This document shows positions 10,841 to 16,139 of a stretch of 32,000 nt of DNA, piece after piece; the stretch's first letter is position 1; every line of letters starts with the position of its first letter. A program made the position numbers and the translations under genes. Below the pieces are notes generated by a model. It was not told the DNA's origin and did not search any database. It saw only the letters and a list, made by a program, of their open reading frames with translations. The DNA is from Candidatus Jordarchaeales archaeon (GTDB lineage Archaea; Asgardarchaeota; Jordiarchaeia; Jordiarchaeales; Freyrarchaeaceae), in the NCBI GenBank assembly GCA_038889235.1, contig JAWAHN010000003.1, positions 83,703 through 115,702 of the forward strand, read 5' to 3'.

Positions 10841-11266
10841 CTACTTTAGCAGCAAAACAGCCCCGTGAAACCTCGTCCCCCTGGTCTTAGCCTCCAGTTT
10901 TTCATCACACGTCAGGAGTTTCCCTCCAACCTTCTCAGCTAAAGCTAAGAAAAGCCCGTCGTAGACGGGGAGGGACAGCTCAAGTCCTATGTTTAGAGCA
11001 TCTTCGTAGAGCTCACGAGAATCCACTTTGATACACGCTTCACTTATAAACCGGACAGCCTCCCTCAGCAGTTTTTTAACCGTTTCAGCGTCGTCTCCGA
11101 AAAACCTTATCCTCTTCCACGCCACGTTCGCCACTTCTGCGACGGCTAGCTCCAACGTGTACAGCACCCCAAATTTGAACACCTCTTTTTCCGCCATCTC
11201 GGAGCACGGGTCGCTGAAGAACAGGGCAGCTATAACGCTGGAGTCGAGAACAGCGACGTCAATCAC
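10841..11266 (-). CDS. vapC: PIN-domain toxin (VapC family)
   Basis: VLDSSVIAALFF...ELAVAEVANVAW...YDGLFLALAE...LLTCDEKL contains the PIN acidic residues. Its start overlaps the stop of the upstream small gene. Confidence 0.9.
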   Translation of the reverse strand: MIDVAVLDSSVIAALFFSDPCSEMAEKEVFKFGVLYTLELAVAEVANVAWKRIRFFGDDAETVKKLLREAVRFISEACIKVDSRELYEDALNIGLELSLPVYDGLFLALAEKVGGKLLTCDEKLEAKTRGTRFHGAVLLLK

Positions 11267-11487
11267 CGGGACCTATCCTCCCTTATCAACTCAGCTGAGC
11301 CAACTCTCTTGGTCCTATCTCTGAGCGGTTTCACTCCTTCAACCAGTAATCTCGCCTTCTCGGCTCTAACCCTACACTCTATGAACGATCTAACCTCTTC
11401 CTGCCAGTTTACGGGAAGCTTCTTCATGTCCTCCTTAAGCTTCTTCGGAATTCTAACACTAAAAGTTTCGGAGCCCAAAAACGACAC
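11263..11487 (-). CDS. vapB: Ribbon-helix-helix type antitoxin (VapB)
   Basis: 74 aa, ETFSVRIPKKLKEDM...VNWQEEVRSFIE, ending LIREDRSR. It sits directly upstream of and overlaps the PIN gene. Confidence 0.82.
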   Translation of the reverse strand: MSFLGSETFSVRIPKKLKEDMKKLPVNWQEEVRSFIECRVRAEKARLLVEGVKPLRDRTKRVGSAELIREDRSR

Positions 11488-11520
11488 CGCAAAACAAGTA
11501 TGTAAACAAAAATATAAACT

Positions 11521-11946
11521 TTATTCGAACACCTGACTAATTAATTTGCTGACGATTTTGTAAACATACTCGGCTTTTCGAACGGCGTCCTCAGCATCCT
11601 CCCGGTAGTAAAGTTCATCGGGTGGCACCCCGGTCTCTTCGTCGCCATACATAGAGGGTTCCCTCTCTCTACGAAGAATCCTAGAGTACCTCGAGAGGAC
11701 TCCTATCTCCGCCTGGAACCACTCTGGAAACCTGGAAGACTCCCTTCTCAGTACAGGGCCAACGTCATGCCACTTCGGCGGCTCAACGCCGACAAACCTT
11801 AACGCCGCTTTCAAGAGGAGCTCCACAGCCTCCTGGCACTGCCTCACAACGTACGGGTAGTTCCCCCTTTCAAGTGTCTCTTTCGCGTGGTGTATCCTCT
11901 CCTCCGCCTGCCTGAGGTACGACTTAGCCATCGAAGTGTTCTTCAT
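11521..11946 (-). CDS. HEPN-domain protein (MNT-HEPN toxin-antitoxin pair)
   Basis: AKSYLRQAEERI...CQEAVELLLKAAL...EPPKWHDVG...EDAEDAVRKAE. ATG 11946 overlaps the MNT stop as ATGA; the ORF track extends to 11997. Confidence 0.88.
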   Translation of the reverse strand: MKNTSMAKSYLRQAEERIHHAKETLERGNYPYVVRQCQEAVELLLKAALRFVGVEPPKWHDVGPVLRRESSRFPEWFQAEIGVLSRYSRILRREREPSMYGDEETGVPPDELYYREDAEDAVRKAEYVYKIVSKLISQVFE

Positions 11947-12431
11947 ATCTCTATCACGTCCCCGAACTTGTAATCCTTTTTGAGCCTCCAATACCAAGCT
12001 TTCCCGAGCCTAACCCTCTCAGCTCCAAGCTCCTGCAACCTCTCTCTCAACCTCCTTAGAATCCCATCGAAAAACCCATCCCTGTCAAAGAGTACGACCG
12101 CATCTTCAACCATGTCTAAATATAAGGGAGAAAAAACGCGTGCCTCCTCCGGCGTCTTAATAATGGGAGAAAACTCCACGTGGTAACCCATTTCCTCAAG
12201 CTCATCCAACTTCTCACCAAGTTTTTCCTCAACCTCCATAAATAACTCCTGCCTTCTAAAAGCACTCTTAGGCGCCCCCCTGAGAACTATAAGCAGGTCC
12301 ACGTCACTATCCTTCCTAGCCTCCCCTCTCGCAACAGAGCCGTAAACAACAACAGACACGAGGTCCTCCCCAAATTTTTCAAGCAGCCTCTCAACAAGCG
12401 ACGAAAGCAACTTTTCATAAGGCCACCTCAA
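11943..12431 (-). CDS. Minimal nucleotidyltransferase (MNT), partner of HEPN
   Basis: VVVYGSVARGEARKDSDVDLLIV is the Pol-beta GS-x-DxD motif. Likely start is TTG 12431 after GGAGG; the ORF track starts at 12482. Confidence 0.9.
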   Translation of the reverse strand: MRWPYEKLLSSLVERLLEKFGEDLVSVVVYGSVARGEARKDSDVDLLIVLRGAPKSAFRRQELFMEVEEKLGEKLDELEEMGYHVEFSPIIKTPEEARVFSPLYLDMVEDAVVLFDRDGFFDGILRRLRERLQELGAERVRLGKAWYWRLKKDYKFGDVIEI

Positions 12432-12751
12432 CCTCCACGCACACAACCCCGCCCCCCAAATTTCTCCGATACCACTCTCCACACCACATCACCCTAAACC
12501 ACTCACCAACAAATGAAAAGCAAGAATTTAAATTAAATCTTTTTAAATTCCTCAACAATTAAACCAAGAAAGCTCCTTCTAACGTCTCCATCTAAAACCT
12601 CTTTTTTACGTCAAACCAAAAACAAGTAATCAGAAACAAAACATTGGAAGCAAAAGTCCCACAATGGGGGTTGAAAAGTGTTGAATCACTCAAAACAATG
12701 TTGCAAAGCGCGTACTCAGGCCGTGCCCCACTATTGTTACGTTACGCTCAT

Positions 12752-13393
12752 TCATCCCGCACTAAGCTTAAAGGTACTTCCCAGAAGCCTGATCGTTGAA
12801 TCCACTTTCTTCCTCAACTCTATCCTGGCTGCCCTTATAGCCTCTCTGACGGATAACTTGTGTTTCGAAACCTCCGCCGCGATGCAGTTAGCCAACTCAC
12901 TCTCAACAACCTCCTTTCCACTAGAGTAGTTTATCACCATACTGATGAACTTGTCTCTCATAACTCCCTAAAGTGGAAGACTAGGAACCCATCGGTAATC
13001 TCTCGGCAAACCTTTCGATGCCTTGCACGCTACGATAACCGAGCACAACCTCCCCCCTTTTTTGCAAATCCTATCCGTTTGCTTTCCATTAATGTAAACA
13101 GGGAGGCTCAGGACCCCTTCGGGTCGTCTATCTTATCGATCTCGCCTACCAATAAGAACCTTTTCCCCTTCTCAAAAGTTTCCTCGTCCCAGCATTACTA
13201 ATCGTCCCACTTTGCAAGCCCAGCGCCCAGAGTCCTCTTAACCCAATCAAGAAAACGACTTAGCTATCCTAGGCAGGCCAACGAGCAACACGTTGAACGG
13301 CTCACCGGGCAACACTCCTCTTCACGAACGCCTTCAAGCTGTCGAGCCCCCTTCTACCACGTCAAACAAGCCCTCTGGCACGTTGCCTTCCAA
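12752..13393 (-). pseudogene. Decayed small AAA+ ATPase (MCM/MoxR-like clade) with multiple frameshifts and stops
   Basis: Stitched minus-strand fragments read PEGLFDVVEG / LDSLKAFVKRSV / EPFNVLLVGLPRIAKSF (Walker A remnant, ~13300-13255) / RFLLVGEIDKIDDPKGS*ASLFTLMESKRIGFAKKG (Walker B region, ~13160-13055) / VIVAC / FLVFHFRE / RDKFISMVINY...LSVREAIRAAR (lid; ORF 12752..12961). It may extend further 5'. Confidence 0.68.
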
Positions 13394-13737
13394 ACGGCAC
13401 GCTATAGAATAGGTGAACGTCTCGATAGCGCCAGCCCCTGCCGACGAGACCCCAATACTTACACCCGTGACTAAGAACTATTAACTTGAAGGGGGGCTTC
13501 GTGGCGGTTTCTACTTGTTCTTTGAAGGTCTATTGACGACTTAAACAGCCGCCACATACCCCCTAGTTAGTAACGCCTTGTTTGAAATAAGTGATAATAT
13601 ACTATGAATCGGAAGTTGCTGTTGCTCTGGGTTAAAGCGTAGTCGGTGGGTTGCATGGAGTGAGTCGTGGGGAGTGTTCGTGTAGTTGACTGGGAAACTG
13701 GTTGCTCCGCGCCGGATCCAAGGATGTTGTATGGCTT

Positions 13738-14847
13738 TTATGGGTAAGCTTTTGAGCCTATGAATTCTTCCAGAATCTTCGCGGCGGTGGGGCTTTCGGT
13801 TATAACTTCTAGTTCCTGGTAACCGTAGCCTCTCGAGTAAAGTATGTACCTCACCAGAGACTCCCTCGTCTCCTGGTGTTTAATGTACGTCTCAGTAGCT
13901 TTTCCCAGTTTAAACCTTCCAAGCCTAATGTCCTTTACTCCTCCAACTGAGAGGATTCTCCTCAATAGCTTTCTCGCACCCTCGTCCGGTATATCTCTTA
14001 GTGGGAGAATTTTCGCGGCCTTAACTTTCCAAAGGTTACCATGTTCCCCAGCTTTGACGGCATCCCTGCCCAGAATGAGTGCAATCTTCTTAACATCACC
14101 CGAGCTGAAAGCCCTGTAAACAAGCCATCCTGCCGGCGAGAGCATACAGAGGTCTCTCTCCACCCGCTCCAGTAGCGCCCAGAAGTACTTTAAGTCTTCT
14201 CCAAACCTATTCTTGACCTCATCGTACGGCCTAGGCGATTCAATGAGCCACTTTATGTCGTCCAAGTGTTTGATCCAGACGTCAGGGTTAAAGAAGAGCG
14301 GAATTGCAGGGAGGGAGACTATCTCGTTAAACCGCTCATGAATATAGTATACGTCCACCCCGTATAGGAGCGCTGCAATGGTCGCGTAAGCCGTCTCAGC
14401 CTTAAACCCCCCAGTAGCAGCAAGCACAACACCTCCCTCCAGCCTTCGCCCCTCCTCGAATACTTCAACAAGCATGTTTATGAGACTGTTAAGACCGGTC
14501 GTGGAGAACTTTCGCTCGTCATACTTAAGCCCCTTCACCTCTTTGACGCTCACATTGTAACCCCTATCCTCGTAAAACCTCTTTAAAGCTTCAGCGCACA
14601 CCTTCCCCTCAACGGTCTCGGAGTGAAGGAGGACTAGGGTGTCTCCATACTCAAGGATCCTCTCAAGCGTGTTTGTCTCCGCACAAGCCCTGTGAAGCCA
14701 CTGCTCATCTTTCTCGCCCTTAAGGTAGCCAACCAATGCGTCAACAGTACTTTTTTCGTTGCTCAACAACACCTCCTGCCGGACGCCGACATCCCTACAG
14801 TAGTTCGAGAGGAGAGAGGCGCCAACAGTAACCACCACGCGCCTCAA
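13738..14847 (-). CDS. APE2256-family (CARF7) CRISPR-ancillary protein: CARF, then wHTH, then DUF2103-like C-terminal domain
   Basis: N-terminal VVTVGASLLSN, LLHSETVEGKVCAEAL and LAATGGFKAE...YYIHERF are APE2256/CARF7 hallmarks. The wHTH-like segment ends in LSPAGWLVY. The C-terminal ~105 aa resemble DUF2103 by eye. The CARF call is firm; the C-terminal call is tentative. Confidence 0.85.
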   Translation of the reverse strand: MRRVVVTVGASLLSNYCRDVGVRQEVLLSNEKSTVDALVGYLKGEKDEQWLHRACAETNTLERILEYGDTLVLLHSETVEGKVCAEALKRFYEDRGYNVSVKEVKGLKYDERKFSTTGLNSLINMLVEVFEEGRRLEGGVVLAATGGFKAETAYATIAALLYGVDVYYIHERFNEIVSLPAIPLFFNPDVWIKHLDDIKWLIESPRPYDEVKNRFGEDLKYFWALLERVERDLCMLSPAGWLVYRAFSSGDVKKIALILGRDAVKAGEHGNLWKVKAAKILPLRDIPDEGARKLLRRILSVGGVKDIRLGRFKLGKATETYIKHQETRESLVRYILYSRGYGYQELEVITESPTAAKILEEFIGSKAYP

Positions 14848-15338
14848 CTAAACCACCCAGAAAAATAATTGGAGAAAAATTTACCTTAAAAATTTTTTCA
14901 AAAAAAGCGCGCAAAAACTAGCCGTGAGAGGCGCAAAACTCCTGTAAAAACCCCCACGGCCAAACTACCACACAGCTAGCCTGAAACCCCTCAGCTCACA
15001 ATCCAGACATCCACCAGCCAGACCCAAGTAATGGCCAGGCAAACTGGGACTTAACCCACCCCTCCAAAATGTGCCCCAGAAGAGAGGAAAAGTGTTCAAA
15101 GTTTTACAACGAGTAGGAAAGCGTTTTCAAGACATATAACATTCAACGAAAAACAGCCACCCTTCCACACAAATCGATCATACCGTGAGCGAAGAAAACC
15201 AGCAAAAGCGAACACATGCACGACGTCACAATTCCCACAAACTCAAAAAGCAAGCAGCCCTAAAACTTGCGAGCAGTTTAAATAGGGCGCCTGGTAGGAA
15301 AAACACGAAAAACACTTAAAAAAGAGGAAAGTTAGAAA

Positions 15339-16139
15339 ATGACCCAAATAACCCCAGAACTCTACGAGTTCATAGTCAAAGTTGTAGAGGACAGAGTCAG
15401 AGAAATAAAGGTCACGCGCGAAGAATTCGACAAACTAACAAACTCAGTGAACAAACTTGCCGAGGCCCAGCGCAGAACAGAGGAGAGGCTGGAGCAGCTT
15501 GCCGCCAGAGTTGACCAGCTTGCCGAGGCCCAGCGCAGAACAGAGGAGAGGCTGGAGCAGCTTGCCGCCAGAGTTGACCAGCTTGCCGAGGCCCAGCGCA
15601 GAACAGAGGAGAGGCTGGAGCAGCTTGCCGCCAGAGTTGACCAGCTTGCCGAGGCCCAGCGCAGAACAGAGGAGAGGCTGGAGCAGCTTGCCAGTACCGT
15701 GCGCGAGACTAGGGATGCTTTGTCTAATTTGGCTACACAGGTTGGCCGTTTGAGCGAGGTTGTTGGTTTTGGCTTGGAGGATGTTGCCCGCATTATGGTC
15801 GCTGGGTGGCTTGACGCCTATGAGGGTATTCTTGTTGGGGAGTTCGAGAGGGGATTCTTTGTTGTTGATGGAAAGGAGGTTGAGTTTGATCTTTTTGCTC
15901 GCGGGCGAAACAGTATGGGGGAGGACTTGTTTGTTGTTGGGGAGTGCAAGTCTAGGATTTACGAGAGGGATGTGAGGGCTTTCGTTGAAAGGGTTGAAGC
16001 CGTGAAAAAGAAGTATCCGGAAGTAAAGGTGTACGCTTTCATGTTTGGCTACGTCATCCACCCGAGCGGGGACAAGGTTGCTGAGAAGCACGGGGTTAAG
16101 TTACTTGCTCCATACCGTATACCTGTGAAACAAAAATGA
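15339..16139 (+). CDS. Coiled-coil repeat protein with C-terminal PD-(D/E)XK endonuclease-like domain (archaeal DUF3782/DUF1626-like)
   Basis: 21-aa heptad repeats LAEAQRRTEERLEQLAARVDQ, followed by EVEFDLFARG...VVGECKSRI (D...ExK motif). Confidence 0.8.
   Translation: MTQITPELYEFIVKVVEDRVREIKVTREEFDKLTNSVNKLAEAQRRTEERLEQLAARVDQLAEAQRRTEERLEQLAARVDQLAEAQRRTEERLEQLAARVDQLAEAQRRTEERLEQLASTVRETRDALSNLATQVGRLSEVVGFGLEDVARIMVAGWLDAYEGILVGEFERGFFVVDGKEVEFDLFARGRNSMGEDLFVVGECKSRIYERDVRAFVERVEAVKKKYPEVKVYAFMFGYVIHPSGDKVAEKHGVKLLAPYRIPVKQK
15456..15692 (+). repeat. Perfect 63-bp in-frame tandem repeat, about 3.8 copies
   Basis: The unit CTTGCCGAGGCCCAGCGCAGAACAGAGGAGAGGCTGGAGCAGCTTGCCGCCAGAGTTGACCAG starts at 15456, 15519, 15582 and 15645 (last copy partial, to 15692). 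Confidence 0.95.

Follow-up and report, generated by a model that had tools for sequence, protein, structure and literature searches.

Type III CRISPR systems delegate defence to effectors activated by cyclic oligoadenylates (cOA), and each newly characterised class of cOA effector has, to our knowledge, revealed a new way to arrest the cell. Cami1 is one such protein, in which a CARF7 sensor and a winged helix-turn-helix (wHTH) linker precede a RelE domain (PDB entries 8PHB and 8PHJ; Mogila et al. 2023, as summarised in PMC11229360). A second fusion on the same scaffold has been catalogued as 'CARF7_DUF2103' (Makarova et al. 2020, as cited in PMC11754643), a status that we take from that citation and from the names of PADLOC profiles. 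The citing article, the Domainator paper, mentions divergent members of CARF7_DUF2103, and the protein described here may be one of them. The Menshen study, finally, lists a DUF2103-like domain with a novel topology among the predicted NsnC effector domains and associates it with Cas_APE2256 in CRISPR loci (PMC12065111). We analysed a stretch of 32,000 nucleotides (nt) from the Asgard archaeon Candidatus Jordarchaeales (GenBank assembly GCA_038889235.1, contig JAWAHN010000003.1, positions 83,703 to 115,702; hereafter the window), in which nt 13738..14847 of the minus strand encode a protein of 369 amino acids (aa) that we call P0001. We are confident that P0001 is an intact Asgard member of the catalogued CARF7-wHTH-DUF2103-like family. 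The best explanation of this family is that it is the sister family of Cami1 and carries, instead of the RelE toxin, a small alpha/beta domain with a distant relationship to DUF2103. An earlier note on this DNA, made from the sequence alone, had supposed that such a fusion might appear in CARF surveys, as indeed it does: three PADLOC profiles (PDLC01930-01932) bear the name CARF7--CARF_DUF2103. The same note knew of no biochemical characterisation, and our search of the literature available to us likewise found no assay of any CARF-DUF2103 protein.

The gene runs from a TTG start to a TAA stop at 13738-13740, and its frame is intact, with 369 open codons. The database copy, P0002 (366 aa, 100% identical), is called from a GTG three codons 3' of the TTG. 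We kept the longer, 369-aa form because the full-length homologues, which are 83-55% identical to P0001 and come from Jordarchaeales-type metagenome-assembled genomes (MAGs), begin at the TTG column and not at the GTG of P0002. The AlphaFold2 (AF2) model of the whole protein, computed from a 78-sequence alignment, has a mean predicted local distance difference test (pLDDT) score of 91.6.

Residues 1-185 (14293..14847, minus strand) form a CARF7 (Cas_APE2256) sensor, an assignment on which Pfam, TIGR02619, a profile alignment to 7PQ2 and 8PHB, and Foldseek all agree. Pfam family Cas_APE2256 (PF09651) matches aa 53-181 with an E value of 3e-34 and 118.3 bits (cut-off 24.8), and TIGR02619 matches with an E value of 3.8e-29 and 101.5 bits (cut-off 37.45). 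The two motifs from which an intact CARF domain had first been read lie exactly where they were placed, TVGASLL at aa 7-13 and TGGFK at aa 145-149. The closest solved sequences are those of Cami1 (8PHJ/8PHB; E 7.7e-15, aa 54-246), Sis0811 (7PQ2), and SSO1393 (3QYF). With the AF2 model as query, Foldseek ranks Cami1 8PHB first (E 2.5e-16; 7PQ2, E 1.9e-14), followed by the Crn1-type ring nucleases and then by Csa3, Can2, Csm6, and Cad1; template modelling (TM) scores by target on the solved CARF7 proteins range from 0.59 to 0.70, and the CARF fold is superposable. In the profile alignment, Ser11 (nt 14815-14817) and Lys149 (nt 14401-14403) share columns with Ser12 and Lys169 of Sis0811, the residues changed in deposited ring-nuclease mutants, and the residues of the ligand pocket and of slow cleavage are therefore retained; the same alignment places Ala in the Ser11 column of the entry for Cami1 bound to cyclic tetra-adenylate (cA4), 8PHJ. 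By sequence likeness, the Ser11/Lys149 pocket of P0001 would be expected to cleave cA4. That P0001 senses cA4 or another cOA we regard as probable.

The linker that follows (aa 186-249; 14101..14292, minus strand) was delimited from the AF2 secondary structure and from an alignment to the Cami1 wHTH that extends up to aa 246. Three helices within aa 188-221, a hairpin at 226-236, and a helix at 238-249 compose a winged helix like those of Cami1 and Crn1. LSPAGWLVY, with which the linker had been said to end, occupies aa 236-244 at its terminus, and L236, S237, P238, and G240 are invariant or nearly so among the homologues. The proposal of a CARF7 sensor joined to a wHTH-like linker is thus borne out by Pfam, AF2, Foldseek, and the Cami1 alignment together. 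A winged helix in the model, with Csa3 structures among the fold matches (E 3e-6), raises the question of whether P0001 regulates transcription in response to cOA, as a protein of the Csa3 type, its wHTH binding DNA and its C-terminal tail modulating dimerisation or partner binding; PMC11754643, in its treatment of CARF-HTH clusters, reads many of them as likely regulators. We hold such a role to be quite improbable, given that the same wHTH is present in Cami1 and Crn1, neither of which is known as a regulator, that no obvious regulated cas operon was noticed adjacent to the gene in the window, and that the recurrence of the tail with beta-CASP nucleases (see below) and in NsnC effector positions would be left unexplained.

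The tail itself comprises aa 250-369 (13741..14100, minus strand), and its definition draws on an AF2 model, on a family of 61 representatives, on profile-profile alignment with hhalign, and on TM scores in the ESM Atlas. The earlier note had expected a separate C-terminal domain starting near HGNLW, whose histidine is His269 (nt 14041-14043), and AF2, given the tail alone in a 58-sequence alignment, models it as a separate and confident domain (pLDDT 93.9). Two short strands lead into a helix (289-299), a four-stranded antiparallel meander (304-350), and a final helix (353-363). A complex prediction with two copies of aa 250-369 scored 0.38 against a mark of 0.42 and is used as evidence in neither direction. 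No model in Pfam, NCBIfam, or PADLOC matches aa 250-369, and a comparison with solved structures returned no convincing match. The best-kept polar residues among the 58 aligned tails are H269 (43 tails), W273 (49), D285 (43), D288 (36), R292 (49), R297 (42), Y334 (40), and Q344 (44).

The tail had been judged unlike RelE, HEPN, PIN, or a restriction-fold nuclease, and this judgement holds. RelE, which would have made P0001 simply a Cami1, was checked and ruled out, for hhalign gives a probability of 0.7% between the tail and Cami1-like, RelE-bearing CARF7 proteins; a HEPN, PIN, or restriction-fold identity was unsupported by every test that we ran, and no profile matched. The ~345-aa proteins that dominate the homologue list have only the CARF-wHTH portion in common with P0001 and align to Cami1 through RelE. 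The tail stands at the RelE position of these proteins, whose CARF-wHTH portions are 35-40% identical to that of P0001.

The nearest predicted folds to the tail are instead those of DUF2103 proteins. Its top match in the ESM Atlas is a cluster of 93-aa proteins, 29% of which carry PF09876 (TM 0.58/0.72; root-mean-square deviation 2.4 over 82 residues). The Atlas's own model of P0001 again has DUF2103 neighbours, and the AlphaFold Database cluster neighbours of the tail include one protein named DUF2103 and one 'predicted metal-binding protein'. For comparison at the level of sequence, we built a DUF2103 profile from the PF09876 protein P0189, encoded at locus L095 in a genome from the phylum of Desulfonema magnum, and its relatives, of which the profile holds 24, all annotated PF09876. 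Aligned by hhalign to these PF09876 proteins, the tail family scores a probability of 85% (E 5.8e-6, 71 columns), with tail aa 291-363 lying on DUF2103 positions 24-96; the 11 closest tail relatives alone score 74%, the tail against a single DUF2103 sequence 76%, and the Cami1-like controls 0.7% and 2.9%. A strand motif, (V/Y)QE..V.T, is common to the tail and DUF2103 alignments. The PF09876 hidden Markov model (HMM), however, matches nothing in P0001 or in its own genome, nothing among the 58 tails (E<=10), and nothing in 151 Asgard genomes or 5 bacterial genomes, Desulfonema included, and direct membership of the tail in the Pfam family is rejected because this HMM never matches. Of the original reading of the tail as a match to the DUF2103 pattern, then, a distant kinship survives, carried by the profile alignment and the top fold match, and Pfam membership does not. 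Together, the profiles and the predicted folds are suggestive of a tail that is distantly related to DUF2103. A separate observation concerns the stand-alone DUF2103 gene at L095:1477-1767, a genuine PF09876 member 97 codons long. It and the 3' end of a cobT-like gene overlap, which may hint at translational coupling.

Between the tail of P0001 and that of the catalogued family, the apparent link is transitive. P0001 matches the PADLOC profile CARF7--CARF_RelE with an E value of 2e-62 and the CARF7--CARF_DUF2103 profiles PDLC01931 and PDLC01930 with E values of 2.1e-54 and 3.6e-38, and all of these matches cover the CARF and wHTH only, from aa 2 to about aa 249-265. For P0136, P0132, P0123, P0010, and the Desulfonema relative, the alignment runs on through the tail columns of PDLC01930/32, and the first four of these proteins match the P0001 tail profile with E values of 2e-23 to 6e-12, so that they would connect the P0001 tail with the family where no direct tail match does. 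A profile named for CARF_RelE, PDLC01033, also extends into the tails of some of these relatives.

The tail is rare, patchily distributed, and found behind several kinds of sensor. A profile built from 11 full-length relatives, run without a word index over 1.84 billion representative proteins, recovered just 61 proteins at E<=0.001, and the tail HMM matches 7 of the 80 CARF7 loci that we fetched from species-representative genomes. The commonest architecture is CARF7-wHTH-tail, in proteins of 350-420 aa. Ten representatives of ~785-855 aa (P0135, P0141, P0143, P0145, P0147, and five more) carry a metallo-beta-lactamase/beta-CASP/RMMBL nuclease N-terminal to CARF7-wHTH-tail, and in P0153, P0162, P0166, P0171, P0173, P0175, and P0176 the tail lies behind an ATP-cone, mostly with a nucleoside 2-deoxyribosyltransferase-like (DUF4406) domain in front; in P0162, P0171, and P0175 the tail profile matches through its first half only. 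Elsewhere, the tail is fused to a YaaA-like domain or occurs in short proteins with no other recognised domain, and by fold alone it resembles the C-terminal ends of S1-domain proteins from plants and a CARF cluster of the Csx13 type. Within the phylum, 6 of 151 sampled genomes encode the tail, 4 of them in the window's own family, and the gene is present in 4 of the 5 sampled genomes of that family, this genome counted; such patchy spread is typical of defence genes. A pattern scan of IMG/VR found no viral copies, which might have served, for instance, as anti-CRISPR ring nucleases. As to neighbourhoods, the beta-CASP fusion P0135 adjoins DprA-like and phosphoribosyltransferase-like genes, and that of P0173, the one examined in the ATP-cone group, is not a defence context.

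The window contains no cas gene and no CRISPR array, in agreement with the earlier note, which had suggested that the protein might serve an unlinked type III system. A candidate for that system exists in the same genome (2.14 Mb in 8 contigs, 95% complete; G000). Contig C4 (locus L005, 1-14742) carries a cas locus that combines types I-A and III-B and runs off the contig end: it encodes Cas3 HD, Cas3 helicase, Cas5, Csa2, Csa5, an RNA-ligase-like protein, Cmr2/Cas10 (1152 aa), and Cmr3, together with three CARF proteins, namely a Csx1-type CARF-HEPN (416 aa), an HTH-CARF (222 aa), and a Crn1-like CARF7 (281 aa). With the protein in the window, the genome encodes four. Cmr2 combines an HD motif in its N-terminal part with a GGDD motif at residue 819. 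There are CRISPR arrays at the starts of C1, C2, and C5, at 459061-460298 of C2, and at 466354-470008 of C3, the last ~370 kb from the window; most of them coincide with contig ends, at which the assembly is broken, and they represent at least 2 repeat types in a k-mer scan. Given a GGDD-intact Cmr2 on another contig and these arrays, an unlinked and apparently signalling-competent type III system therefore exists in this genome.

Operon linkage to type III genes is seen directly in two bacteria. In an uncultured bacterium (L018), the CARF7-DUF2103-like gene closes the series cas10-csm2-csm3-csm4-csm5 and precedes an MNT/HepT gene, and we identified no other CARF gene in that csm operon. In Desulfonema magnum, a Cas10-palm gene is followed downstream by RAMP genes and then by the CARF7-DUF2103-like gene. 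Further relatives have Csx1, or Csx13 and Cas2, as neighbours, and in the Jordarchaeales relative examined the gene is not linked to cas10 or csm-cmr genes. The gene directly after the CARF7-DUF2103-like gene in L018 (11193-12080) encodes a 295-aa MNT-HepT fusion, that is, a Pol-beta-type nucleotidyltransferase joined to a HepT-like RNase.

These data bear on whether P0001 is mainly a ring nuclease of the Crn1 type that serves the unlinked Cmr system, with its tail a non-catalytic appendage for stability or oligomerisation. Ser11 and Lys149 are what a ring nuclease would keep, but the effector Cami1 keeps the same Ser and Lys. The NCBIfam ring-nuclease equivalog NF040951 does match P0001, but weakly, at 46.5 bits against a cut-off of 600. 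The Crn1-type proteins Sis0811 and SSO1393 are close fold matches, and the cA4-type Csx1 of this genome needs an off-switch, yet the 281-aa Crn1-like CARF7 gene already stands next to cas10. Although the tail has no invariant catalytic residues, as an appendage might, it has been kept in both archaea and bacteria and also occurs with other sensor domains, and in L018 a CARF7-DUF2103-like gene is the only CARF gene identified in its csm operon. On balance, we think a mainly ring-nuclease role unlikely.

The immediate surroundings of the gene raise a different doubt, namely that P0001 is the orphan of a lost CRISPR module and is either uncoupled from cOA or senses another nucleotide from a non-CRISPR system. 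On one flank lie an MNT-HEPN pair and a VapBC-like pair, and on the other an HD protein and a protein with coiled-coil repeats; the gene is bordered by non-coding gaps on both sides, an Rfam scan of these gaps found no match, and the cluster adjoins cobN. Jordarchaeales-labelled MAGs hold the nearest relatives, and one of these MAGs is syntenic and retains cas6 two genes off. The genes at 10841-12482 (minus strand), which are a PIN (VapC-like) gene with its small upstream partner and the MNT-HEPN pair, are 79-89% identical to, and syntenic with, those of this Jordarchaeales MAG. In the MAG, an additional PIN/MazE pair, a gene of 313 aa, and cas6 separate their counterparts from the CARF7 gene. 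The corresponding 1.25 kb here (12483-13737) has no open reading frame (ORF) longer than 114 codons and no Rfam match, and neither it nor the rest of the window holds a relic of cas6 or of the 313-aa gene. Set against an orphaned gene are its intact ORF, its conserved ligand-pocket residues, its retention in most sampled genomes of its family, the GGDD Cas10 and CRISPR arrays that the genome retains, and a plausible promoter on its 5' side. The putative promoter and ribosome-binding region (14848..14900, minus strand) was read from the sequence: an A/T-rich box, TTTTTAAGG, lies ~35 nt 5' of the TTG and a GGGTGG ~7 nt 5', which would make a plausible archaeal promoter and ribosome-binding site. 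We accordingly give the orphan scenario a low probability. On the other flank, the coiled-coil protein (15339-16139, plus strand; 266 aa) contains four near-perfect tandem 21-aa coiled-coil units with a 63-nt period at ~nt 15455-15644, and Pfam and PADLOC searches with it yield coiled-coil noise alone.

The explanation that best accommodates these observations, and which we favour by a little over an even chance, is that P0001 is a cA4-sensing, self-limiting ancillary protein of a type III system, served in trans, with the tail as its output. We infer the functional steps as follows. The type III-B (Cmr) complex of the genome would make cA4 on meeting target RNA, and the CARF7 domain of P0001, as a dimer, would bind it. 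The wHTH and tail would then rearrange, the tail providing an output that would most likely be the binding or cutting of RNA, possibly on the ribosome as in Cami1. Slow cleavage of cA4 by Ser11 and Lys149 would finally switch P0001 off. Three observations argue for the tail as effector. It takes the place of RelE in a scaffold that is otherwise conserved; other nucleotide sensors (ATP-cone/deoxyribosyltransferase-like, YaaA-like, and, by fold only, Csx13-type CARF) make use of it as well; and in the csm operon of L018 we identified no CARF gene other than a P0001 orthologue. We put the chance that the tail is an effector output at about even. That its target is RNA or translation is a more tentative proposal, to which the beta-CASP/RMMBL fusions, the fold likeness to S1-domain proteins, and the analogy with Cami1 point weakly.

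Several points weigh against this explanation. The gene has no cas neighbours in the window and sits inside a toxin-antitoxin island, and the cas locus on C4 already has its own Csx1 and Crn1-like CARF7, beside which the gene in the window may be redundant. The link from the tail to DUF2103 consists of hhalign probabilities of 74-85% plus likeness of fold, and we know of no function for DUF2103 itself. We found no link of the tail to known nuclease chemistry, and not one column is invariant across the 58 aligned tails. The behaviour of His269 is equivocal. Of the 31 plain CARF7 fusions, 25 have His at this position and 6 have Glu, and 7 of the 10 beta-CASP fusions have lost the residue; the sample behind this comparison is small, and the beta-CASP fusions in it are probably one clade. 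Such a pattern suits a tail with a binding or accessory role no less than a catalytic tail.

The same pattern is compatible with a catalytic histidine that is dispensable beside another nuclease, since a residue that catalyses in proteins with the tail as sole output would be expected to disappear from most beta-CASP fusions. The tail may accordingly be a cA4-gated enzyme, most plausibly a metal-independent RNase or a ribosome-directed toxin, with a fold that has no solved representative; we consider such an enzyme possible, although the chances are against it. Its active site would comprise His269 (Glu in one subclade), Arg292, Arg297, Tyr334, and Q344. Were this the case, the family would add a new effector class to type III CRISPR and would offer the first functional lead for stand-alone DUF2103 proteins.

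The CARF7-DUF2103-like family is a catalogued class for which we found no assay or structure, and its presumed output domain, for which no relative has been solved, recurs with several nucleotide-sensor modules. The copy described here suits a first biochemical or structural study, for it is intact, has a confident model, and resides in a genome with an apparently signalling-competent Cmr system. What is new is an Asgard member and the comparative detail that surrounds it, and neither a new kind of system nor a new principle.

Against the known systems, P0001 is placed as follows. It has the scaffold of Cami1 (CARF7 and wHTH), its TGGFK and Ser motifs, its length, and its domain order, and Cami1 is a type III ancillary gene, as P0001 probably is; whereas Cami1 ends in a RelE mRNA interferase, P0001 ends in a different small alpha/beta tail. 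The Crn1-type proteins (Sso2081, Sis0811 7PQ2, and SSO1393 3QYF) have CARF7, wHTH, and the catalytic Ser and Lys in common with P0001, but they stop after the wHTH at ~275 aa, where P0001 adds a conserved domain of 120 aa, and P0001 scores far under the cut-off of the Crn1 equivalog model. DUF2103 (PF09876) probably has an alpha-beta4-alpha core in common with the tail, as the predicted structures suggest. It is a stand-alone protein of ~95 aa, whereas the tail is fused to CARF7-wHTH and has an N-terminal extension of its own with GxHxxLW and DIPD motifs. The DUF2103-like domain of Menshen NsnC, whose effector role is itself a prediction, is a candidate relative of the tail. The CARF7_DUF2103 family, finally, probably has the same architecture as P0001, the tail of which is too divergent for direct profile alignment.

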